From: Massalongia carnosa
Taxonomy: Eukaryota
DNA: 64,000 nucleotides
NCBI GenBank assembly: GCA_965645245.1
Contig: OZ287072.1
Location: 1,860,001 to 1,924,000 of the forward strand
Direction of reading: 5' to 3'
Position 1 is the first letter of the stretch. Every line of letters starts with the position of its first letter. Positions 4,261 through 50,616 of the stretch are shown in pieces. The position numbers were made by a program, and so were the translations under genes. The notes beneath the pieces were generated by a model. The model was not told the DNA's origin and did no database searches. It saw only the letters and a program-made list of their open reading frames with translations.

Positions 4261-5312
4261 GTTTTTACAAAGTATATATGTGCGATAAATGGCTTGAACA
4301 TCGGGAGTTTTGTTGGTTTATACCCCCGTTTTTTGGGGGGGGCGTTTTATGTTATCCATCGTCTGGACGCTCTAAAACACCTTTTTCCTGCCTTAGCGTA
4401 CATAGAATATATGTCCGAGTCCCTGATAGCCTCGTTTATCTTGCCCCCCCCTGGTTTTAAATACCTAGATAATTGTCTATCGACTTTCCTCTTTCCCTGC
4501 TTCCCCTGCTTTCCAATTTCAAACCGCCCTCGTCATAGTAATAGTCAGTAACCCCCCCGCGTCTTACGTATTATCTATCCACTTATGATCTCATATTATC
4601 CGATATAAAAAATTTTTTATTAATTCATTTAGTGTACATATGCAACCTAAGGTTATAAAACTGAATTATTTACATGATATGTTTCTGATATATAAATCAG
4701 ATCAACCATTTAAAACCCAACCACTGATCGTCTATTTTGACCCATTTTTACTTCGTGTTGTTGAAAAACCTGAAATAATCGAATAAACGATTTAATCATG
4801 TATGTATGTAAAACGTTAGACTGTGATTCGATATGTTTATACAGAAGTGAAATGAAGATGCTCGAGACGACACTTCGGCCGATTGATGTTCTGTGAACTG
4901 TTCGTGAGATGATTTTAAAATCTTATAATGATGAAAATGACTATCTAAATAGCTTTTCTTCGAGTCGTTTATATAATGATGCGATGAATTTATGATTGAT
5001 CGTTCATGTGATGATTCAGCTGATGAACTATGAGTGATCGAATGATAGGGGGCCGGTCATCGAAATGACTCTCCATTAGGTTGTGTGTTTTGAAAAGCCT
5101 ATAACCCTCTCTGTAAATGTTGTTTGATGATAGATAAAGGCCTATCCCTTCGTCTGGCCGTTTGGCAGCCACCTCAAATAGGCTTAGTTTTTTACCGTAA
5201 GGCTGAGTCGCGAACATCAAAACTTTTACCCCTTTATTTCGCCGCATAGTAAATAAAGAGATAAACACACTTAAAAGTTACCTTAACAGCTAAATTTATC
5301 GAATAAATCATC

Positions 5313-6068
5313 ATGAGAGGCATAGAAATTGAGGGTCCTGATCAATCAGATACTCTGCCCCCCTCAGTGCTAAAAGAACAGTCAAAAAGAAATAAACCAA
5401 GCGTAAAAAGCATCATTGATTCTATTCCCCCTCCGTCATCAAGTTATTCTCCAATTTCAATCCCATTTCGATCACCTCAACCCTACGAGACATTGGGCTT
5501 GATAAAACAGACTCCCTTCAGTTTATTCTCTCTCTTTTTCAGCTCTGATTTATCGAGAATTGTAGCCGAAAACATCAATTTGAAAGCAAATAAGGAGTAT
5601 TCCCGCGACAGTAAGGAGCAACGTCGATGGCACGACACGTCAGCTGCTGAAATAAAAGCTTTTTTAGGAATTCTTCTATATATGGGCCTAGCTCGTATGC
5701 CTCGTATCACCGACTATTGGAATACCACTTCAAACTTTGCTATTCATGAGATGATTACCCAAACCATGAGTCTCAAAAGATAGGAGCAAATCAAGCGATT
5801 TTTGAAGATATCCAATCCCTACGAGACCATTGATACTCGAGGCCCTGATTGGTGGAAAAAGCTGGAACCATTGACCACAGACTTTCGAAAAGCATCAAAG
5901 AAATACTGGATTCCTGGAAGCCATTTGTCAGTTGATGAGCAATTGATTTTATTCAGGGGACGAAGTTGCCACACCATGCAAATAGCCACTAAGGCGGCTA
6001 GTGTAGGCTTCAAAATCTATAGTCTATGTCAGAATAATTACCTTTTTGGCTTCTTATTTACCTCCAAG
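5313..6068 (+). pseudogene. piggyBac-like transposase exon 1 of copy A, with a nonsense codon at 5781
   Basis: Motifs AFLGILLYMG, DYWNT, HLSVDEQLILFRGR. TAG replaces the TGG seen in copy B. Ends at the intron donor GTGAGT. Confidence 0.88.
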
Positions 6069-6444
6069 GTGAGTCAAAAGATGAGCTGGAAAATGAGCTA
6101 GAAAATGAGCTGAATATAAGTGTAATAGGGTAGGCCTAATATGCGTTCGTTGAACGTAAGACTGGCCTATGTGGCTATGTGGGATACGTACAGCCAAAAC
6201 AACCACCAAGACAATAAGGTCCCGCCTAACCAAGTTAGGCATAGTGTGGGGACTTAACTTATTATGGAGGTGTTTTCGTAGTACATGAAGTATCCCCTCG
6301 CCTCGCCTCACCTCCCCTAGCTCACCTGCCTAGTCTTATCTACCCGTGTCTTTCGGTGTCCGAAGTATTTCGGAGTCCGAAAATACCAGGTAGTATGAGC
6401 AAGGTATGGAAGAAGAGCTTAGGTTATGGATTGTCCTATCCTAT

Positions 6445-8586
6445 CCCTTCGTCTGGCAATTTGGCAGCCATTTAGGTAATATTCAATTTTACACGCGCCG
6501 TCTCCGGGTAATGACTAATAACTTTAATCTGGCCAATCAGATTTTCCCTTTTCAACGATAATGGGTACAACACCTCAATCACCCCTCATGATCTATGTAA
6601 AATTTCCCAACATGCCTCCTTTTTGCAACATGGTCCACAGCTCTTACATTGCCATCTGGTCTGACTTGCACGTCGTCTTTTGGTGCAATTTTCATCAATT
6701 TCCGCAAGTGGTCGGCGTCGTTTGAGTCTTGGCACTTGCCTTTTGCAGGCCAAACAATAGTCCTTCTTATTCAAATGCTCCCATTTGCAAGTTGACTCGA
6801 CGTCTTTATTAACGTCTTGATTAGTAGTAACTATGACATCTGTCGGACGTTTCCGTAGGGCACCGGCTTGATTGGATAGTAGGGCATTTACTATTTCTTT
6901 TTGAAAGTCCAAATGGCTGAGTGTTGAATTCGGATACAGAATTCTCCACAATTTGAAGGCATTTAGAACGGCTGCATCCAGAAGAAAGATGAAAATTGAC
7001 CACCAGTAGCGACGATCAGATCTTTGAGGTGAATAATATGCTCTTTGCTGAGCATTCCCATCTGACCCGCCTATGTGCTGGTTATATTCCACGATGGGCA
7101 TGGGAAATGGAAGCTTTTCTTCTTCATCATCAACGATGACTCTGGAATTTGCAGGAATTCCATGACGTCGACGGGAATTCTTGTAGAAAGAAGTCTTCAA
7201 ATCCTCAATTGTATGAACCGTGGTCATGAATTGCACGGTGTTTAAATCCACCCATGCCATACACAGAATGTCCCCGTCATCAATGTTTGATTTTTTACTT
7301 TTATTTGCAGGTACCGTCATCAATGCCTTCTTTCCCCAGTCCTTATTCTTGGTGGCTGCAACCCTCAGACGTAGAAGATCAACAGGAAAACCGCATCCTG
7401 ATTTAGCCGTCCCACAGGCACCAATTCCAATGGTTTTCAGAGCTTTGAATAGCTTCGTATTTGTGAAGAAGTTGTCCAGAAAGATGACGTATTTCAAGCC
7501 TTCATCAGACGGTAAACTTCGAGCCAGTTAAATGACGACTAGGGAGGAAGGAAACAAATCCCATTTGGTTGTCGGAAATTTCAATTGTCCAGGCGTTTTT
7601 AACTCACTAATTTTGGACACCTGTCTTGCAATTAGTACGATGCAAATTGAGGCCTTTTCTACTCACCTTGGAGGTAAATAAGAAGTCAAAAAGATAATTT
7701 TCCTGACATAAACTATAGATTTTGAAGCCTACACCAGCCGCCTTGGTGGCTATTTGCATAGTATGGCAGCTCCTACCCCTGAATAAAATCAATTGCTCGT
7801 CAACTGACACATGACTTCCAGGAATCCAGTATTTCTTTGATGCTTTTCGAAAGTCTGTGGCCAATGGTTCCAGCTTTTTCCACCAATCAGGGCCTCGAGT
7901 ATCAATGATCTCATCTTCGTCGGGGTTGGATATCTTCAAAAATCGCTTGAGTTGCTCCCATCTTCGAAGACTCATGGCTTGAATCACCATGTCATGTATG
8001 GCAAATTTAGGAGACGTGTTCCAATAGTCAGTAAGACGTGGCATCAGTGTATACCCCATATATAACAGAATTCCCAGAAAAGCTCCTACTTCAGAAGAAG
8101 AGGTGTCATGCCATTGACGTCTCTTGATGTCGTTTAGGGCATACTTCTTTTTCGCTTTAAGATTGGTGTTTTTAGCTATGATTTCAAGCATTTCAAAGCT
8201 AAAAAAGAGGCAGAATAAACTGAAAGGAGTCTGATTTATCAAGCGCAACGTCTCGTCCGGCTGTGGTTTTCGAAATGGGATCGAAATTGTACAATAATTT
8301 GATGACGGAGGGGGCATGGAGTCAATTATGCTTTGTACGCTGGGTTTATTCTTTTTGGCCTGTTCTTTCAGAATTGAGGGGGGCAAAGCGTCTGATTGGG
8401 CAGGAACTTCTATCTCAATGCCTCTCATGATTATTCTAAAGATATTGTAGATGTTTTAATGATTTTCAGCTGATGTTTACCTTCTTATTTACAAAAAAAG
8501 GGGAGAATGTTTTGAAGTTCGCGACTCAGCCCTACGGTATCTCACTAAGCCTATTTAAGGTGGCTGCCAAATTGCCAGACGAAGGG
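6445..8586 (-). mobile_element. piggyBac-like DNA transposon, full-length inner copy B (2142 bp)
   Basis: Perfect 26-bp TIRs CCCTTCGTCTGGCAATTTGGCAGCCA. Flanks are CTAT and ATAG. The empty site is visible in the 3' LTR. Confidence 0.95.
6586..8428 (-). pseudogene. piggyBac-like transposase, two exons, about 598 aa, one in-frame TAA
   Basis: Exon 8428-7667, intron 7666-7621 (GTGAGT..CTAAT..CAG), exon 7620-6586. Catalytic D motifs VSVDE, FLDNFFT, GGSD, and a C-terminal Cys-rich domain. Stop at 7530-7528. Confidence 0.9.
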
Positions 8587-8882
8587 ATAGATCAATGATC
8601 AAGCACTTCAAAAGGGTAGCATTTAGTCTACCCTTTGACCTGACCCTACCTATTTTGTACCTCTATTGTGACCATCACGTTGTGTAGCCCCTGTGGATCC
8701 CATCTTCCAGTAGTGAATGCCTGCTGGGAGAAGGTCTCCCCGTTTCAATTCTAATTGCTCTATATATCTCCGGATTAGCACGATCCGGTGGTCGCAATAA
8801 GGGTGCTGCTTTTTACCGCTTTCGCCATCCAGCACCATTTGGCCTTTCGTCGTTCAGGCCAAACTTCCTCATCGATTCTTCC

Positions 8883-10134
8883 ATGGTCACCCGCAGCCAG
8901 TCCGCTGCAATTAGGACCTCCATGGATCCTTCTCTCCTCGGCACCTCCGGTGCTTCAGCTAATTCAGCCAATGCATCTGGTGCTCCGCCGTCTAGTGGCC
9001 CACTTCCTGTCGGCCCGCACGGCTCCGCCCGTCCTTCCTCTGGCACGTCAGCTACCACAGTGACTCTGACTGCGGAGCAATGGGCTGCTATCCAGTCTAC
9101 CCTGGACCAAATCAACCAGGGCCATGGCCGAACTCCCTCTCGGTCTGCTCGCCGATCTCGATCGGCCCCACGATCTCCTCGGGCACCCCAGTCGCCTGAG
9201 AGGTCATCCAGGCGGAATAGTCATCATACCCGCCGGGACTCTCGCTCTCGCTCGCCCGGCCATTACCATCGCCGCCGGTCACCTTCGCGTGACTACTCAA
9301 GCCGCCGTTATGACGGCGCCTCTCGTCCCTTACTGAAGCCCAAGGTTTCTGACATATACAAGGGAAGTAGTCACAAGGAGCTGCATGAGTTCGCTCGTCA
9401 GTGTCACGAGTACTTCAAAAACTGCACGGGCGCATCCCGATGGTTCTTCCTCCGTCTCTTTCGCGGCTTCCTTTCTTCGCGGAGAGACTGTTGGCCATGT
9501 ATGGTCAGAATACGTCCAGACATTGCCGCTTGATTACGACCCACCCTGGGCCGAATTCTCAAAGGTCCTCTGGGATGAGCTTAGCAACGAGAAGACCTTC
9601 GTGGACAAAACCTGGGGAAAGTTCTTTAGTTTTGTTCAGCGCCCTGGAGACAACGTACGCACGTTTAGCGTACAGCTTCAACAATTGTGCTCCGTTCTTC
9701 AGGAGTATGACATTCATTTCCCCCGCGAGTCCGACATGATTCGCCGCGCTCGAGATGCTCTGCGTCCTGAGATTAAATCAGCCCTTTACAACATGGTTGA
9801 CAATGCGAGCACCTACTCGCAATTCGTCGCTCTCGCAATGCAGGCCGAGGCATCCGTTAATATGCACACCTCGACCAAGAACTCCTCACATCGCGACTCT
9901 CGTCGCGATAAGTCAAGGGATGCCTCGCAAACTCGATCGTCGAAGACTCAGGGTAAGAATCACAGACGTGGCAAGGGTAACAACAAGCCTACCGAATCTT
10001 CCGGCACCTCTGCCAACAAGACACCTGCCACTGGCGCCAACGCAGAGCCTCCTGCCGAAGTCACCTGCTATAGATGCGGTGAAAAAGGGCATATCTCTAC
10101 CCACTGCACCAATCCTCCCAAGCCAAAAAACTAG
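8883..10134 (+). pseudogene. gag of the gypsy element, one frameshift near 9430-9480
   Basis: Two overlapping ORFs (8883-9533 and 9385-10134). CCHC zinc knuckle CYRCGEKGHISTHC. Confidence 0.88.
10125..10131 (+). promoter_or_regulatory. -1 ribosomal frameshift slippery site A AAA AAC at the gag/pol junction
   Basis: The heptamer is in the gag frame directly before TAG, and the protease ORF (10161) is in the -1 frame. Confidence 0.8.
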
Positions 10135-13100
10135 CTGTCGCCGGCGTTACTTCCGAACCGGTGACTGACCCTAGGGAGGCAATTGCCAAGCATGCGCCCC
10201 GTTTGCAAAGAGAACCCTCTACGATAGATGGTTCTCGGTTGACTACCCATGGCATGGTGTTAGCCAAATTCTCTCTTGATGACAAGCTCGAACGAACTCG
10301 CTGGTTCGAGGAGACTTTTCTAATAGCAAACGTCTCTCATGATGTCGTGTTGGGGATGCCTTTTCTGAAACTCGGCAACCCGGAGGTCCACTTCGCTGAA
10401 GGGTCTCTCACTTGGAGAGATTATTCTGTCTCGACTTCTTTGCCGACCGAAAGGCGCATTGAGTTAGTTGAGCCGGAGACCTTCGCAGAGGATGCTCTGG
10501 ATGATAAGTCCGCTTGCTTTGTCGTACAAGTAGCCGCCATTCTTGATGCGTTGGACGACGCTAGGCGCGTGAACCTACAGGCTATTTCGACTACAGAGGA
10601 GATCAAGCTCCCTGTGGAATACGCCGGTTATGAAGGGGTATTCTCTGCGGAGAAAGCTGACGAGTTGCCGTCGCTGACCCCGGATGATCACAGAATCGTC
10701 CTAGAGGAGGCAAGTCGCCTCATGGGCCTATCTATAGCCTCGGTCCCACGGAGTTAGAAGCTCTAAGGGGTTATATCGAAGTCAACCTCAATAACGGGTT
10801 CATCAGACCGTCGACTTCTCCTGCGGGGGCGCCTATCCTCTTTATTAGGAAGCCCAGCGGAGGATTGCGGCTATGCGTCGACTACAGGGGTCTTAACAAT
10901 ATAACGATTAAAAACCGTTACCCCCTGCCGTTAGTAGGCGAGGCCCTAGATAGGCTCGGCCGAGCGAAGGAGTATACCCAGCTTGATCTCATCCATGCGT
11001 ACCATAGGGTGCGAATAGCAAAGGGAGACGAGTGGAAGACTGCCTTTCGAACTCGCTATGGCCATTTCGAATATCAGGTTATGCCCTTTGGGCTTTCCAA
11101 TGCACCAGCGACGTTTCAAGCTTTGATTAACAAGGTACTCGCTGAAAAACTTGATGTTTTTTGCATTGTCTATTTAGACGATATTCTCATTTACACTGAA
11201 GAGACTGGTTCAGCGCACACTGATGCGGTTAAGTGGGTGTTTGAACAGTTACGAAAGCACGGCCTGTATGCCAATTTGCAGAAGTGCCGTTTCAGTCAGA
11301 AAGAGGTTCGCTTTCTTGGGTATATTATTTCACCTGAAGGTATTCGGATGGAGAATGATAGGATAGAGAGCGTGCGCAGCTGGCCTAGACCCCAGTGCGT
11401 TCGCGATATTCAAGTCTTTATAGGCTTTGCCAATTTTTACCGCCGGTTCATCAAAGGGTTCAGTAAGATCGCTAGGCCTTTGACCGCGATGCTGAAGACG
11501 ACGGGCCCTAAGATGCCGAAATCGGACCCGTTTCTGACTGCTGAGGCGTTATTAGCGTTCGATCAACTGAAGGGGGCCTTTGTCACGGCCCCAGTCCTCA
11601 GGCATTTCGATGCGGAGCGACATATACGCGTGGAGACTGATGCATCTGGGTATGCCATCGGTGAGATACTATCACAAAAGGACGATGAGAGTCATTGGCA
11701 TCCAGTAGCCTACTTTTCTAGGAAGATGATTCCCGCGGAGCGTAATTATGAAACGCATGACGCGGAGTTGCTGGCCATTGTCGAGGCTTTTAGGCATTGG
11801 AGGCATTATCTCGAAGGCAGCACTCATGAAGTTCTAGTTCTCACCGACCACAACAACCTAAAATGGTTCATGGATACCAAACGACTCGGCGGACGCCAGA
11901 TCCGTTGGGCGCAGGAGCTCTCCCGGTATAACTTTCGGATTGACTATCGTCAGGGTTCTCACAACCCCGCAGACGCCTTATCTCGCCCCGCCCAGGCTGA
12001 GGCGGATGACGATGAGTTAATAGTTGAGAATAGGCAGATATTGCACCGCTTGCAGGATTCTTTGCTGTTGAACGAGCCCGTGACCATTCGGGCCTGCAAG
12101 GCATTAAGCCAACCTAAGAAGCCCCGCGAGCGTGACTACTCGCAGGGGTATAGGAAAATGATGTTAGAGGTGATTATCTGTGGGACTGCGGTGGTCCCGG
12201 ACCTCGTCAAGTCATGGGCTGTTATAAGGGCAGTCGTGGCTGAAGAGGGTCCCTACACTGCAATCGGTTCATTACTTCGACGTCTTCCTGAGTTGCTTGC
12301 GGAAGACAAGGGCGCCCAGGCTGTACGGAAGAGGCTAGCTACCTCCGAAGTTAATGCTTTTTCTGGTGTTTCGGGCGAGCCCTGGAAGGAGTCCGGGGAT
12401 GTCTTATATTATGAAGGCAAGCCTTATATCCCCGAGACGTTACGAACTGAGCTAATGGCGCGCCATCATGATGACCCCTTGGCGGGGCCTTTAGGCATTG
12501 AAAAGACCCAGGAGTTGCTGACTCGGAAATACCACTGGGACACTATCAAGGTGGACGTTGAAAAGTACGTGGATGCGTGTGACGTATGCATGAGGTCGAA
12601 GTCCCAGCGGCATAAGCCGTATGGGAGTCTCCAGTCCCTGCCGATTCCCTCGCATAAGTGGAAAGACATTACGATGGACTTCGTTACAGGGCTCCCGCGC
12701 AGTTGCGACTGGCGTGGAGTAGGATATGACTCCATCCTCGTCATTGTTGACTGCCTGGCGAAGATGGTCCATTACGAAGCAGTGATGAAAACGCTGACGG
12801 CTGAAGGCCTCGCGGAAGTAATTATTGATTCGGTCGTGAGATACCATGGGCTCCCTGACTCTATAGTTACAGACCGTGGCTCCCTGTTCACATCGCAGTT
12901 CTGGCCCTCGCTGTGCTATTTTGTTAGCATTAAGAGGCGTCTCAGCACTGCTTTTCACCCACAAACTGACGGCCATACAGAGCGTCAGAATAGCACGTTG
13001 GAGGCGTACCTCCGGTCCTTTGTCTCATTCGAGCAGGACGACTGGGTGCAGTATCTGCCCATGGCTGAGTTCGCCTTCAATAACTCCAAGCACTCTAGCA

Positions 13101-13740
13101 CCGGGTTGACTCCTTTCGAGTTGAACTGCGGTTATCATCCGCGGATGAGCTATGAGGATGAGCTGGAGCCCCGTTCGCGGTCTAGGGCGGCGGGGACTGA
13201 GGTCGCGGAACTCAAAGAGCTTATGGACCTGTGCAAGGCAAACCTTAGAGGTGCACAAGAGTCTCAAGCTCGCTACCATAACAAGGCTACAAAGGATCGT
13301 GTGTACAGCCCCGGCGAGTCAGTTTGGTTGGATGGCAAGCACTTTAACACGAAGAGGAATAGGAAGCTTGGACACAAGTTCCTAGGTCCATTCATGGTTA
13401 TTGAGCCGATTGGCAAGCAAGCCTATCGCATCCAACTGCCGCCGCGTTGGCGAATCCACGATGTCTTTCATGTGTCTCTTCTGGAGAAGAATGGCACTAA
13501 GAAGGGGGGAGTCGATAAAGAATTAGCGGAGCAGATAGAGTTCAATGAAAATGAACCAAAGGAGTACGAGGTCGAGAGTATTCAAGATTCGGCTGTCTAT
13601 GCTAGGGAGTCGGAGGACGGGAGACCTGTAGGCTTTATTATCTGATCCATTGGAAAGGATACCCTGAGTCTAAGGATAGCTGGGAACCGTATGCGGCCAT
13701 CAAGCATTTACGCAAGATGGTGAGCTTATTCCATAGGATA
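10128..13740 (+). pseudogene. pol: partial protease, RT, RNase H, integrase, chromodomain; frameshifts near 10710 and 13630
   Basis: RLCVDYRGLN, YLDD, ETDAS, DALSR, MDFV..TDRG..TER, HDVFHVSLL, EYEVESI..YLIHWKGYPESKDSWEP. Confidence 0.93.
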
Positions 13741-14357
13741 ATCCTTCAAAATCCACCACAAGCGGAACCCCAGTCGATTCAGGTCCTCCAGGTCCTCCTC
13801 TAGCGAAGAAATCGACGTACTCCGCGCTGCAGCCGGACTCCCCGCCTGGCCCTGTCGATGAGGCTTTGCCTTTAACCTCGCAAGTGGGGGTCGACTTGGT
13901 AACACCGCTGCGTCTAGGACGTCCCACGAGGGGTCGTCGGCAGTTAGGTATAGATGACGCTGGCGCGGCTGGGACGGTCCATACGCGCAAGAAGCCGCGA
14001 GTCTGGTCCTAAGGGACAGGCGAAGAAGTCCAATGCTGCGGCATTGGCAGTGAGTATGTAAGTCGGTGCCTAATGGCCGGAAGGGGCTGCATACTCACAA
14101 GGGGACCGTCGGCGCAGTGGATCATTCGGCTAGGCCGTACCCGTCATGACAGCGATGCCTTTTTGCCTCTGTCCCAAAGGGTCAGAGGGTTTTTATGGAG
14201 TTGTCTAGGTACGCACCCTAGGTCGTCATGAGGCTATCTTTTGCAGTGCATGTCTCGGATGGGACTCGACCATAGGAGGGAGGCAGTTGTAATAGGGTAG
14301 GCCTAGTATGCGTTCGTTGAACGTAAGACTGGCCTATGTGGCTATGTGGGATACGTA

Positions 14358-15693
14358 CAGTCCCGTGTCAAAAGTTTCCGACTCTACCCGCGATTTTCGT
14401 GATTTCGCGTTTTAACCTACCAACCCATCAACTTTGACCTCATCATTTCACCATGCCACGCACTCCGTTGACTTCAATTTCTGGTAATAAGCCTCGTAAT
14501 ACCGAATTGAATCAATGTCAAAGAGGTATGATTATTGGAGCCCAAGCGTTGGGGCATGCACCGGCCGAAATTGCAAAGACATTAAATGTACCTCGAACCA
14601 CCGTCATTTACACTCTTCAAAAGCACCCAGAACGCAACAACGAAAAGTCCAAATCGCGATCGGGTCGGCCTGGAATATTTTCGAACCGCGATCGAAGACG
14701 TATCATCAAACTTGCGCGAATCAATCCACGCATCACCTACGCGCAGCTGCGTACGGAGGTTGAGGTGCAATGTAGTCGATCCATTCTCTATCGGACGCTC
14801 AAAGACTATGGTCTAACAAACTGGCTGGCTAAAAAGCGACCTTTATTGACGCCCGAGGTGGCAAAGAAGAGACTGGACTGGTGCTTGCTTCGGCGTGAGT
14901 GGAATTTTGAGCAGTGGTCAAAAATAATATGGTCAGACGAGTGCTCGGTGGAAAAGGGGTCGGGAAAACAGCGTCAATGGGTGTTCAGGTTTCCGGACGA
15001 AAAATGGAAAAAACCTATGATACAACCGTACGGCAAAGGAAAAGAGGTTAAGGTCATGGTATGGGGGGCTTTTTGGGGGGGGGGAGGTCGGATCTTTACA
15101 AATTGGCCCGCGATTTCGAGGCAAAGAAGATGGGGTACTCCGCGAATTCATATTTGGAATTATTGAACGATAATCTGCTTGGAATTTGGGAACCAGGTCT
15201 CATTTTCATGCAGGATAATGCCCCCATTCACACTGCCAAAAAGGTGAAGAAATGGTTCGATGAAAACGGTATAACAGTCATCGATTGGCCCCCTTATTCT
15301 CCTGATTTGAATCCCATCGAGCACGTTTGGTACGTGCTCAAAAAGCTCGTCTACCAGGTCAATCCGGACATGGACTCGGTGACTGGTGGTGATGATAGGG
15401 TCCGCGAGGTACTTTGGAAAGCTTTGGAAGAAGCATGGGCCTTGATAGATGAGGAAATGCTGAAGAGTTTAGTAGACAGCATGGAAAGGAGGATTGAAGC
15501 TTGCATACAGTCAAAAGGATGGTATACGAAATATTAAAAATATATTTCTCAGCCCAATGTGCTTGCTATAATGTATGTAATCATCGTACGAAGTTTCAAG
15601 ACATCAAAATAACAACTTGATAGTTGATAATTCAAAGCAGTGAGGGGGTAAAAAGTTGATAGTGGGCTGTCGGAAACTTTTGACCTAGTACTG
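14358..15693 (+). mobile_element. Tc1/mariner (DD34E, impala-like) transposon with TA duplication
   Basis: TIRs CAGT(N5)GTCAAAAGTTTCCGAC. TA at 14356-57 and 15694-95. The empty site GATACGTACAGCC is present in the 5' LTR. Confidence 0.95.
14453..15537 (+). pseudogene. Tc1-type transposase with a frameshift in a G-run near 15075-15085
   Basis: N-terminal HTH, then WSDEC, FMQDNAPIH and WPPYSPDLNPIEHVW spread over two overlapping ORFs. Confidence 0.9.
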
Positions 15694-16736
15694 TACAGCC
15701 AAAACAACCACCAAGATAATAAGGTCCCGCCTAACCAAGTTAGGCATAGTGTGGGGACTTAACTTATTATGGAGGTGTTTTCGTAGTACACCCCTCGCCT
15801 CGCCTCACCTCCCCTAGCTCGCCTGCCTAGTCTTATCTACCCGTGTCTTTCGGTGACCGAAGTACCAGGTAGTATGGGCAAGGTACGGAAGAAGAGCTTA
15901 GGTTGTGGATTGTCCTATCCTATATAGATCAATGATCAAGCACTTCAAAAGGGTAGCATTTAGTCTACCTTTTGACCCGACCCAACCTATTTGTACCTCT
16001 ATTGTGACCATCACGTTGTGTAGCCCCTGTGGATCCCCTCTTCCAGTAGTGAATGCCTGCTGGGAGACGGTCTCCCCGTTTCAAAACCCTACTAACCAAT
16101 CAAGGGGGTATTCTACGAAAAGGCGTCTCAGCATCATCAATTTCAGATGAGGTAGTATGCAAATGGGAGCATTTATCTAAGAAAGCCTATTGTTTGGCTT
16201 GCAAAAGGCAAATGCCTACACTCAAACGCCGCCGGCCACGTGCCGAAATAGAAGGAAATTGCACCAAAAGAAGACGTGCAAGTCAGACCATCTGGCAATG
16301 TAAGAGCTGTGGGCCTTGCTGCAAAAAGTAAGCATGTTGGGACATTTTACATAGATCATGAGGGGTAATTGAGGTGTTGTACCAATTATCGTCAGAAAGG
16401 GAAAATGCAGTAAATCTGATTGGTCAGATTAAAGTTATTAGTCATTACCCGGTGACGGTGCGTGTAAAACTGGCCAGACGAAGGGATAGGCTTCGAACAT
16501 AGGCGGTCAATCTGTTGGAATACTCGTTTAGCCCCATTATTTCTAGCTCAGCTCTGCAGGCTGCCATAACTGCTATAAGCAGTCACCTCCGTAGTAATTT
16601 CAACATTATGCCGTCAACTGTTCATTTAACACAATCGACGCGAAAATGCAGACGATTTCGTGCAGACTAGAAATGATTTTAGAGGTGATCGTCGAATCAA
16701 ACAATGAACCCCGAATCCATGCGTGAAATAGCACTA

Positions 16737-22536: not shown

Positions 22537-24478
22537 ACCGTGCGACCGAGGTAAATCCGATGGACCGCACCCGGAACTACGCTCCAGGTGCGGCTCACCT
22601 CCATGACGCTATCATCTCCATGACGCATTTTTAAAAATTTCTATCATCTATCATCAACCATTTATTATTCAACCACATCATGTCTGATTCGTACAAGAAA
22701 CGAGAGGCTAACATTGCAAAGGCCTTAGATGCATTTGCGAAGAACACATACGAATCAGCCGCAGCCTGTGCCAAAGAATTCGATATTTCACCTCGTCTAT
22801 TTCAAAGAAGACTACATGGATATAGCAAGCGAAAAGCAGTCAATATGAGGCTGTCTGCTGCACAAGAACTAGCCCTGAAGGAGTATATTGAATTTCTTGA
22901 TGATATTGAATTATCAATGAGATTGCCATTGATTCGCGGTGCAGCTAATTATTTGTTGCAATTGCAACATCCTTCCTCGTCTTCATCTTCTCTCACCCGC
23001 GTAGGAAAATGCTGGACCGGACGATTCTTGAAAAGAAATCCCCAATTTTTCATGCAAAAAGGCAAGCCATTAGCAGCCGAAAGGAAAAACGCTCACAATG
23101 TTACGGATATTCAAACTTATTTCTCTTCATTTCAATCGACTGTAGCCCTTCTTGGTATAACTCCAGATGATATATGGAATATGGATGAGACAGGCTTTCG
23201 AGTTGGCTGTGGGGTAACCCATTTGGTGGTGACACTATCATCACATAAACGAATTATGATCGCTGATCCAGACAATCGAGACTATATAACTTCGGTCGAA
23301 TGCATCAATGGAGTTGGCGGAAGCGTCCCATCCTTTTTGATTTTGAAAGGGGTCAACATACTTCACAAATGGGCCTTAGAGAATGATTTGAAAGATGATA
23401 TCGTGTTGACTACAAGCGATAGCGGCTATTCGAATGATTGTCTAGCATTAAAGTGGCTAAAGCATTTTAATGCTCATTCAAAAAATGTTCAAAAAGGAGC
23501 GTTTAGGCTTCTTTTGTTGGATGGATATGGATCTCATCTAACGTATGAATTTTGGGAATATTCGAAAGAAAATAAGATCTGTTTATTCAGATTACCCCCC
23601 CATTCAACCCATTTGACGCAGCCATTGGACGTTGGTGTTTTTCAGCCAATGAAACATTATCATGCTGAAGCGGTTGACAACGCCATTCGGTTGGGTGACG
23701 TTGACTTCAATCGTCTGGATTTTCTGGCCGCATTCAATCAATTTCGTACAAAGGCATTCAAATCATCTACTATCAAATCAGCCTGGGAAAAAACTGGGTT
23801 GATACCTTACAATCCGGAGGTAGTCTTGACCAAAATTCGTGCTTTAAATCCGGCATTACCACCACTACCAATATCATCTTCGGAGACAATAATCCTACCT
23901 CATACCCCCAAAAAGCCCAAAGCCGTTGCTAAGGAAGGGGAAAACATTATTCTGCGAATGAATAATAATGAAGAAATTACTCCAGAAAGAATGCGACGTT
24001 TTATCAAAGGGTCGGTTGCAAACGCTAATTTACTAGAATTGACGCAACGCGACTTGCAAGCCACACACACAACTGCATTAGCTAAAAGGGCCCGAAAAAA
24101 GCTTGCTGGCACCGTTGTTCAGAAGGGAGGAATCGTTACCGTTCGAGATGTGAGGCAAAATCACCTACATCGTACCCAAGAAGAGGTGGAAAGGGAGGAG
24201 GGTCGTCAAAAGCGTGCTGAGACGGCTAGACAAAAGAAAATATTTCTCTATGGAAAAGCGATAGCTAAACGGTTTGGCTTGGTGGGTAAAAAGGCCGAAA
24301 GCTGGATAGATGAACGTCAGCCTTTGATTTTGAATAGCTTCATTTTGAAAGGGTCAATCAATGGATATAATGTAAATAGTTGAGAAATGCGTCATGGAGA
24401 TGATAGCGTCATGGAGGTGAGCCGCACCTGGAGCGTAGCTCCGGGTGCGGTCCATCGGATTTACCTCGGTCGCACGGT
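22537..24478 (+). mobile_element. Full-length Fot1/pogo transposon
   Basis: About 90-bp near-perfect TIRs ACCGTGCGACCGAGGTAAATCC... Flanks are TA on the right and TG on the left. Confidence 0.95.
22680..24383 (+). CDS. Fot1/pogo transposase, intact 567 aa
   Basis: HTH region plus the triad motifs WNMDETGF, LLLDGYGSH, QPLDVGVF. Confidence 0.95.
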   Translation: MSDSYKKREANIAKALDAFAKNTYESAAACAKEFDISPRLFQRRLHGYSKRKAVNMRLSAAQELALKEYIEFLDDIELSMRLPLIRGAANYLLQLQHPSSSSSSLTRVGKCWTGRFLKRNPQFFMQKGKPLAAERKNAHNVTDIQTYFSSFQSTVALLGITPDDIWNMDETGFRVGCGVTHLVVTLSSHKRIMIADPDNRDYITSVECINGVGGSVPSFLILKGVNILHKWALENDLKDDIVLTTSDSGYSNDCLALKWLKHFNAHSKNVQKGAFRLLLLDGYGSHLTYEFWEYSKENKICLFRLPPHSTHLTQPLDVGVFQPMKHYHAEAVDNAIRLGDVDFNRLDFLAAFNQFRTKAFKSSTIKSAWEKTGLIPYNPEVVLTKIRALNPALPPLPISSSETIILPHTPKKPKAVAKEGENIILRMNNNEEITPERMRRFIKGSVANANLLELTQRDLQATHTTALAKRARKKLAGTVVQKGGIVTVRDVRQNHLHRTQEEVEREEGRQKRAETARQKKIFLYGKAIAKRFGLVGKKAESWIDERQPLILNSFILKGSINGYNVNS

Positions 24479-48310: not shown

Positions 48311-50616
48311 TAGGGCTCTGAAATTTTCGAAATTTTGACAAGGTCGCACGAAAATTTCATCACGTGTGCGCGCCAAGCATGAAATTTTCGAAATTTATTA
48401 CTAAGCACATATACATATCTTGTAGATAGATCGATACCTCATTTTGATAGTCACTCTCATACATTTAAAGGTATCTTCCGATTTTATACTCATGGCTCAA
48501 CGCGGTGGAAGAAAGAAAAATTCTCTAATTGAGGAGAATTTCAAAGACGTGATCACCATGGGATTGAAAAACCTCAGCATCAATGCATTCATTGTGGTCA
48601 TCAGACTACCAAGAATGCTGTAAGAGGACTATCACATTTAGATCAATGTGATGCCTACAAACAGAAGATAACAAAGAATGAAGATGCCTCGTTCAGTTCT
48701 AGATCAATCCAACTGCCCATTACCACCATGATTCGTCCCCTTAGCCAGAGTCAAATTGCTCATGCTCATCGCGAGGCGGCGATGTCTGTTTATATGACAA
48801 ATCTTCCCTTCAACCACTTCGAGAATCCCTATGTTATTGCGGCATTTCAAGCTCTTTCTCCTGGATACAAGCCCCCTCATGCCAGACTGATGGCTGGACG
48901 ATTGTTGGATGAAGCCTATGAAACAGTTAAATTCAAAATAAATCAAGAATTGAATGCTTGCAATCATCTCAGCTTTTTTACCGACGAGACAGCCAACATT
49001 CGAAAAGAGCGAGTAATAAATCTCTGCTGTCACGTTCCCACATCTGTCACTTCTAGTGGCGGAGGATTTCAGCTAAAAGCTGATGTCGGAGTGGCGGAAA
49101 AAATGACGGCAGTCGTACAAGCTGAATGGGTGATAAATGGATGTAGGGATGCTACCAACAATCAGCTTGAAAGGGTTAATTGTATCTGCACCGACACGTG
49201 CTCTACAATGAAAGCCATGTGGACGAAAATTTCGAAAAGTGCAGAGATGAAGCATGTTTTCTTCGTACCTTGCGATAGTCATGGTTTGCAGCTATTGTTA
49301 GGAGACATTTTGAAATTTCCTTATTTTACAGATGTTATAGAAAAGGCTCAGTTGATCGTCATCAGTTTTCGCGGATCAAATAAGGAATTAGCTAGTTTAT
49401 GGAAATACCAAATGAAGGGATACAAACAGCGTCGTTCCTTGGTTCTCAACGTTCTCACCAGATGGGGTACGACGGTTGGTCTTTTAAATTCAGTATTGAA
49501 TAATCAACAGGCCTTGTTGGATTATTTTCAGCAGAAGAATCCAGGCATAGATCAGGGAAGAAATAAACCTTTGGGAAGTTTCGTCAACGATTATTCCTTT
49601 TGGAAGAAACTGACCATGGTCAAAAAGATACTGAATCCCATTCATAAACTTCAGTACATGTCCGAAGCCGAGGGATATAAGCTATACACCGTAACAAATA
49701 ACTGGAATATCATTCGCTCTCATCTGTACTCGATGGCCGAAGAAGAAAGCGACAGTGAGGCGGATCTATATCACATTGGTCGTTTGGGAAGATAGATATC
49801 TCAGTCAAATAACAGAGCTCCATGTGGTTGCATCTCTTCTGCTTCCGCAAAATCGTACGATAAAGGTGGTCGGCGTTACTACAGAACATGCTTTTTCATC
49901 GATCATGCATAGATTCTTTGCTCGATATCTGAATGCTGAAGATAGCATCGTTGCCATGAGACAATGGCTTGCTTTTCGAGATCAGGAAGATGGATTTCAT
50001 GCAAACTCAGAATGTTGGACTTATCAGATGACACCGGAGCTGTTTTGGAATTTTTGCAAGCATTTTGCATTGATTCTTAGCAAGCTGGCCAGAAAGGTAA
50101 TGATGCTTCCTGGCAATTCAATGTTGGCAGAAAGAAGTTGGTCGGTCATGAATTTGATCATGAACAAGACTCGAAATTCCATGGCATCGATCAACGTGGA
50201 TAAGCTGATGTTTATTTATCTGAATGAAAGAACTCTTAACCGACCGAAAGAAATCAAAAGGAAGCTACAATTCGCAGGCATTGACATAGAAGAAGACGAT
50301 CTATGTGAGATGGAAGACAGATTGTTGCAGGAAGAAATCTCTCTGCAAGAAACAGCGACAGTAAAATCGTTGAAACGACCAGCAAGTCAAGCGATAGAGG
50401 GAGATGCGGTCAGGCTCAGAGATACTTGAGATTGTATGAAGATTAATAGCTAAATCAAGTTCCTCGTTCCTATTTTCCGCTTTCCCCGCACCCCCCTCCC
50501 CCCTGCCTACCCCCCTGCAAAACATCCATGAAAATTTCACTCGTGAAAGTCGCAGTGAAACTTTCATCCCGATCGGGTTAGGCAAAATTTCATGAAAGTT
50601 TCATTTCAGAGCCCTA
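48311..50616 (+). mobile_element. hAT transposon with 8-bp target-site duplication
   Basis: TIRs TAGGGCTCTGAAA and TTTCAGAGCCCTA. TSD ATCTCAGC at 48303-10 and 50617-24. GAAA(A)TTT subterminal repeats. Confidence 0.96.
48492..50429 (+). pseudogene. hAT transposase with frameshifts near 48550 and 49780
   Basis: BED-like CIHC..HLDQC, FFTDE, CTDTC, PCDSH, TRW, and the dimerisation motif AERSWS. Confidence 0.88.

Follow-up and report, generated by a model that had tools for sequence, protein, structure and literature searches.

The window analysed here, a 64,000-nucleotide stretch of the Massalongia carnosa genome, contains transposable elements nested within one another. An older piggyBac-like copy (5146-16485 overall) has been split by a Ty3/gypsy-type LTR retrotransposon, and each of the two LTRs of this retrotransposon is itself interrupted by a further element, in one case a second piggyBac-like element that is the subject of this report. 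The outer copy is 75-93% like the inner one, lies in the opposite orientation and is missing ~770 bp from its middle. The features of the nest are as follows.

5146-6079, plus strand: left part of the outer, older piggyBac-like copy, preceded by the flank GCCTAT (to 5145); repeat pairs I1, I3, I4 and I5
6121-16084, plus strand: Ty3/gypsy-type LTR retrotransposon splitting the outer copy; RVT_1, RNase H and integrase, with LTR repeats
6121-6444 plus 8587-8748: 5′ LTR of the retrotransposon, interrupted by the inner piggyBac-like element
6445-8586, minus strand: inner piggyBac-like element, 2,142 bp, with termini CCC...GGG; inverted repeats and sister-LTR comparison
14288-14357 plus 15694-16084: 3′ LTR of the retrotransposon, interrupted by the Tc1/mariner element
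14358-15693, plus strand: Tc1/mariner element in the 3′ LTR with a TA duplication, used as internal control
16085-16485, plus strand: right part of the outer copy, followed by the flank ATAGGC (from 16486); repeat pairs I2 and I6

The Tc1/mariner element encodes HTH_Tnp_Tc3_2 and DDE_3 domains over two frames, and its copies are abundant in sequencing runs. The remainder of the window carries eukaryotic host genes and more transposons. Its DNA also occurs in sequencing runs labelled lichen metagenome and in those of four organisms, and the host is presumably a fungus. We observe a pogo-like DDE_1 ORF within an inverted-repeat pair and a hAT-like gene with DUF659 and a hAT dimerisation domain (22570-24445 and 48533-50429), and the transposon-rich region lies beside host genes for a tyrosine phosphatase, a CBS-domain protein, an importin, bromodomain proteins and a quinolinate phosphoribosyltransferase.

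The inner element and its transposase gene

Counted with the adjoining CTAT, the inverted repeat of the inner element is perfect over 30 nt, and the element carries a single gene, on the minus strand. The 13-mer CCCTTCGTCTGGC has exactly four occurrences, at 5146 and 6445 on the plus strand and at 8586 and 16485 on the minus strand.

8561-8586, minus strand: terminal inverted repeat at the 5′ end of the gene (repeat pair I7)
7667-8428, minus strand: transposase exon 1, with the ATG at 8428 and the first catalytic Asp motif, VDEQL (frame and homologues)
7621-7666, minus strand: putative transposase intron of 46 nt, GTGAGT...ACAG (sequence, frame and alignment to the homologue P0001)
6586-7620, minus strand: transposase exon 2, with the Asp motifs LDNF and GGSDG and a Cys-rich C-terminus; natural stop at 6586-6588
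7528-7530, minus strand: in-frame TAA stop, private to the window copy (comparison with four sequencing runs)
6445-6470, plus strand: terminal inverted repeat at the 3′ end of the gene (repeat pair I7)

The exon limits were placed from the reading frame and homologues. Both exons match PF13843 (DDE_Tnp_1_7, the piggyBac transposase domain), exon 1 at positions 1-182 (E 4.9e-33) and exon 2 at positions 204-349 (E 7.4e-20). Together with the Asp motifs, these matches bear out the proposal, made in an earlier note on this DNA, that the element is a piggyBac-type DDD transposon. We take the Asp residues of VDEQL, LDNF and GGSDG to be the DDD triad by their presumed correspondence to T. ni residues. 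When the window transposase is aligned with four homologues, both Asp residues, in LDNF and in GGSDG, are invariant, as are C258, C261, C294, C297, C301, C306 and H311. The C-terminal part of the window transposase aligns to the C-terminus of piggyBat, for which a structure has been solved (chain 9c0f_C).

The TAA at 7528-7530 is the sole premature stop in the window transposase, and position 7530 is G in 4/4 sequencing runs, giving CAA (Gln) on the coding strand. Judged by its sequence, the window copy is disabled by this private nonsense codon; intact members of the family probably exist and, since the other copies carry Gln at this codon, the family may still be mobile. Copies ~99% alike to the inner element are found at other loci in sequencing runs of two other organisms.

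The insertion site in the window

The retrotransposon provides both a filled and an unfilled version of the insertion site. The 5′ LTR reads GATTGTCCTATCCTAT (6429-6444), followed by the element as CCCTT...AAGGG (6445-8586) and then by ATAGATCAATG (from 8587), and the 3′ LTR reads GATTGTCCTATCCTATATAGATCAATG from 15908.

6442-6444, unstranded: left flank TAT of the inner element, target-derived judging by the sister LTR (other copies match from 6442 onward)
8587-8589, unstranded: right flank ATA of the inner element (another copy matches up to 8589)
15920-15927, unstranded: empty site CTATATAG in the sister (3′) LTR (LTR comparison)

When the flanks of the inner element are joined by script they equal the sister LTR exactly (CTAT|ATAG), with 0 bases gained or lost and a subject gap of 0, so the strings and the exact joining reported in the earlier note hold when checked against the sequence. 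The insertion point cannot slide, as the insert has C for its first base and G for its last and is bordered by T and A. The same note was correct in giving the outer copy its own flanks, GCCTAT up to 5145 and ATAGGC from 16486, and TAT/ATA is found at 4/4 element ends within the window. With these flanks, the claim of a non-TTAA site with no 4-bp duplication also stands. A search for a target-site duplication outside TAT/ATA found none.

How far this LTR pair can be trusted to report a duplication is indicated by the Tc1/mariner element, which has TA on both sides in the 3′ LTR versus a single TA in the 5′ LTR. Since this TA duplication is visible, the LTR pair reports a normal duplication when one is present. 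Across ~459 aligned bases the 5′ and 3′ LTRs show 12 substitutions, and three further indels (8, 18 and 1 nt) distinguish them. In addition, a 156-nt contig from another organism covers 15889-16044 of the LTR without a gap, so that TATATA is probably the original LTR reading. The earlier note had also considered that LTR copies might generally read CTATAG; this one contig, which spans the site, argues against CTATAG as the usual reading.

Flank conservation in other copies and in the clade

Among the matches listed from copies in two other organisms, 4/4 loose ends lie at 6442 or 8589, with an adjoining base unlike that of the window in each case; this tally covers four matches, with 516 more beyond them. 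TAT...ATA is conserved and the fourth base (C/G) is not.

We sampled relatives as 80 metagenome loci encoding transposases with 25-43% protein identity to that of the window, and scanned them for CCC...GGG inverted-repeat pairs with the flank left unconstrained. Element-sized pairs were flanked by TAT/ATA in 14 loci, by TTAA in one (L069) and by CAT/ATC in one (L041). For a census of ends, 17 terminal-repeat seeds from clade elements were used, yielding 74 non-redundant ends, and TAT precedes 66 of them. Three of the eight non-TAT ends are apparent chance matches, and another three come from the L041/L038 family, which keeps AT alone. The base at -4 is C in 30 of the 74 ends, G in 22, T in 13 and A in 9. 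The share of A (9/74) compares with a background of 34-37% beside TATA/TATATA, so A is depleted whether insertion duplicates AT or is blunt. C or G at -4 thus accounts for 52/74 ends, and sites within longer TA runs are seemingly avoided.

The closest relatives (42-43% identity) also have ends of the form ...AAGGG|ATA or TAT|CCCTTAA, and canonical TTAA was seen among the relatives in L068/L069 only. In a quick tree the window transposase groups with L001, L002, L003, L004 and L009 (98% SH-aLRT). TAT-type elements occur in all major groups of this tree, whose root is arbitrary, and the branch that leads to the TTAA pair is long. Searched against 1.84 billion representative proteins, the window transposase gave 44 matches at E ≤1e-30 and 373 at ≤1e-10. 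An exact scan of metagenome contigs did not find the terminal repeat of the window family, and a scan of prokaryote genomes returned two loci, both irrelevant.

Several other repeats were observed in the sampled loci. A related family with CCCCTAATCC ends (L041:1753-4357 and L038:1504) keeps only AT adjoining the element (CAT, GAT, AAT), a hint that AT is the core of the site. A repeat family starting CCCCGGTGGTTAG always follows TA (L001:1760, 3794 and 5395; L002:5153; L025:5600), and in L001 and L002 it directly adjoins the piggyBac-like copy on the right (GGG-ATA-CCCC). The L025 member lies at the same TAT where L026 carries a 214-bp miniature piggyBac-type element. This gene-less derivative (L026:5560-5773) has perfect ends, TAT|CCCTTTAACC...GGG|ATA, so the clade makes miniature elements too.

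Two empty sites that differ by two bases

A left flank xTAT combined with a right flank ATAx excludes any direct repeat of 1, 3 or 4 bases beside the CCC and GGG, and the fourth bases agree in 3/15 flank pairs, which is the chance level. The flanks leave three readings: an AT duplication (target TATA), a TA duplication in which T and A are the element ends, and no duplication (TAT|ATA). A 4-base stagger with donor-derived flaps was rejected, since either the length would be wrong or ATAT would have to stand on one or both sides.

An all-against-all insertion-polymorphism search of the 80 loci and the window returned two events with TAT/ATA-type ends. Besides the LTR pair of the window, there is a copy in L033 (2567-5038; region L033:1604-6217) that has inserted into an older, inverted copy of its own family. 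Its filled site reads CTCC-TAT[...]ATA-AGACCC versus CTCC-AAT(C/T)-A... in 17/17 paralogous copies, which is a net gain of 2 bases and fits an AT duplication in length. The T at -3 and the A at +3 of the filled site are absent from the 17 paralogues and are explained by no simple model; they are either two extra substitutions in the host copy or bases that travel with the element. L025 and L026 were also considered as an empty/filled pair and rejected, since L025 holds a different insertion at the same TAT and is not empty.

The two empty-site comparisons disagree, with 0 bases gained in the window LTR pair and 2 in L033, and an uninterrupted palindromic target with 0 gain or loss fits 1/2 events (the window but not L033). 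AT duplication and blunt insertion each call for a 2-nt indel that is not observed, the former in the (TA)3 tract of the window and the latter in L033, and both require the two L033 substitutions. A 2-nt indel in the window LTR is not far-fetched, because the LTR pair has three unrelated indels per ~460 nt. The blunt integration without a target-site duplication that the earlier note had favoured thus agrees with the sister LTR in the window but not with the net gain of 2 in L033, and the alternative that it had offered, a 2-bp AT duplication, agrees with L033 but not with the net gain of 0 in the window.

A piggyBac clade with a short A/T palindrome as its probable target

We consider it likely that the window element is a cut-and-paste DNA transposon of the piggyBac superfamily, belonging to a widespread, probably fungal clade that integrates at a short A/T palindrome other than TTAA. 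Its family membership and the clade-wide flank pattern are established, as are the lack of TTAA and of any 1-, 3- or 4-bp duplication. Clade members keep the hallmarks of piggyBac (a PF13843 transposase, the Asp motifs, a Cys-rich tail and CCC...GGG termini). In the mechanism that we propose, the TAT on the left and ATA on the right that appear to bracket copies, with a mild C/G preference one base out, would be target DNA. We regard TAT/ATA as target-derived because TATATA stands at precisely this position in the sister LTR, the chance of this hexamer at a given site being ~1 in 4,096, and because flanks carried by the donor do not dictate the new flanks of T. ni piggyBac, according to the passages of PMC7351741 that deal with this point. 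A transposase dimer would attack the centre of the palindrome, with the two strand transfers presumably 0 or 2 bases apart versus 4.

The spacing of the two strand transfers can be stated only tentatively. That T|AT|A is attacked with a 2-bp stagger, so that AT is duplicated, comes close to an even chance in our estimation; with a palindromic AT, such a stagger would keep the complementary overhangs and the seamless excision of piggyBac logic. Blunt attack on TAT|ATA, giving no duplication, is possible but rather doubtful, and would parallel Spy as described in the relevant part of PMC4122938. A mechanism other than these two is unlikely.

The narrower reading put forward in the earlier note, in which the target is an 8-bp palindrome, CTAT^ATAG, specific to this family and entered bluntly without duplication, now seems improbable. 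It draws on the exact match of the joined flanks to the sister LTR, on the same CTAT/ATAG flanks around the outer copy, on C or G at -4 in 52/74 ends and on the contig that spans 15889-16044 without a gap, which makes TATATA probably ancestral. Spy, in the part of PMC4122938 that concerns it, is a precedent for an element that enters the middle of a palindrome and duplicates nothing. However, the match ends at TAT/ATA in two other organisms, the fourth base is not conserved either in these same-family copies or across the clade, where the -4 base shows a mere C/G preference, and L033 has its net gain of 2. The trait is moreover common to a whole clade of relatives, contradicting the claim that it is peculiar to the window family, and is partly in print for the Tuber indicum element Ti_tr1. 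With a variable fourth base and a clade-wide trait, we reject the 8-bp and the family-specific parts of this reading.

We give similarly little credence to TAT...ATA being the true inverted-repeat termini of an element that inserts without duplication or sequence preference and sometimes deletes target bases. TAT/ATA is invariant over very divergent families, as terminal bases usually are, and the L033 paralogues are without T/A at -3/+3, as if these had been brought by the element. However, the TATATA of the sister LTR would then be a 1-in-4,096 coincidence combined with a 6-base target deletion, and L033 would need a 4-base deletion, so that the two events would differ again.

Ciliate piggyBac-derived enzymes cut around TA, and a TA direct repeat is present in nearly all copies, both of which would suit a TA duplication with T...A as the outermost element bases (TA-[TCCC...GGGA]-TA). 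This reading, published for the related ascomycete element Ti_tr1 in the section of PMC3864998 on its ends, is nevertheless very improbable, as it predicts CC-TA-GATC in the window where CC-TATATA-GATC is observed (4 bases short) and CTCC-TA-AGACCC in L033 where CTCC-AATC-AGACCC is observed (2 bases short), and as the L041/L038 ends read CAT, GAT and AAT before CCCC, without TA.

A clade that integrates at a short A/T palindrome, the reading that we prefer, bears on what is regarded as typical of the superfamily. TTAA targeting and a 4-base stagger are treated as defining piggyBac and underlie its seamless use in genome engineering. Because the clade keeps the enzyme fold and the CCC/GGG ends, it provides a comparative handle on how the protein encodes target choice and stagger, and its transposases are, from their sequences, candidate enzymes with a different site preference. 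The clade also offers a reason for the way in which TTAA-dependent pipelines overlook or misassign fungal piggyBac-like elements, as in what the 2013 and 2017 papers discussed below say of such flanks. It is conceivable, though we hold it to be doubtful, that the strand-transfer spacing has been reset from 4 to 0 in the whole fungal clade, with blunt insertion into TAT|ATA and no duplication. If blunt insertion is true, the piggyBac superfamily would here have its first lineage without a duplication, which would also offer a natural way to insert and excise DNA scarlessly at a site other than TTAA.

Comparison with known systems

Canonical piggyBac (T. ni IFP2) and piggyBat share with the window clade the PF13843 domain, the Asp motifs, the Cys-rich C-terminal domain and the CCC...GGG termini, as well as a size of ~2.1-2.7 kb with a single gene. 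Unlike them, the window clade has neither TTAA nor a 4-bp duplication, and its flanks are inverted (TAT/ATA) and not direct.

The nearest published case is Ti_tr1 from Tuber indicum (Belfiori et al. 2013; PMC3864998), a 2,351-bp piggyBac-like element with an intron-containing gene for a transposase of 566 aa. In the account of its ends in that paper, the authors report a lack of TTAA and describe the repeats as flanked by TA, call this a TA duplication and leave the classification open. Compared by its description alone, Ti_tr1 is like the window element in being an ascomycete piggyBac-like element without TTAA; however, its TA reading, as published in that account, fits neither empty site examined here. 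In the survey of Bouallegue et al. 2017 (PMC5381638), the passages on flanks report four rare types whose 5′ and 3′ copies are unequal, ATAG, TTAT, ATAT and ATAA, and blame them on TTAA having mutated in individual copies. Elements of the form TAT|...|ATA would be expected to have precisely these 4-mers beside them, although the elements involved are known by those reported flanks only. In these two papers, as far as the passages cited here go, a clade-wide non-TTAA piggyBac lineage has previously been glimpsed but misread. Within full-text literature, the scope of our search as distinct from Repbase/Dfam, we found no duplication-free or clade-wide TATA-targeting piggyBac lineage.

Outside the superfamily, the two systems that most resemble the possible behaviours of the clade depend on which spacing is correct. 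Spy elements, related to PIF/Harbinger-IS5, insert without duplication, as documented by many empty sites in the relevant part of Han et al. 2014 (PMC4122938). If the window clade is blunt, both would insert into the middle of a palindromic A/T hexamer, AAA|TTT in Spy versus TAT|ATA here, with no duplication. Spy differs in belonging to an unrelated transposase superfamily and, going by that part of the paper, in its many empty sites, versus one for and one against here. If the stagger is instead 2 bases, the parallel would be with ISL2EU elements, which have a 2-bp duplication, typically AT (cited in PMC4122938, in the text on duplication lengths). This comparison concerns behaviour only, since ISL2EU elements, as presented there, use a transposase of a different superfamily, and an AT duplication would be the trait that they and the window clade have in common.
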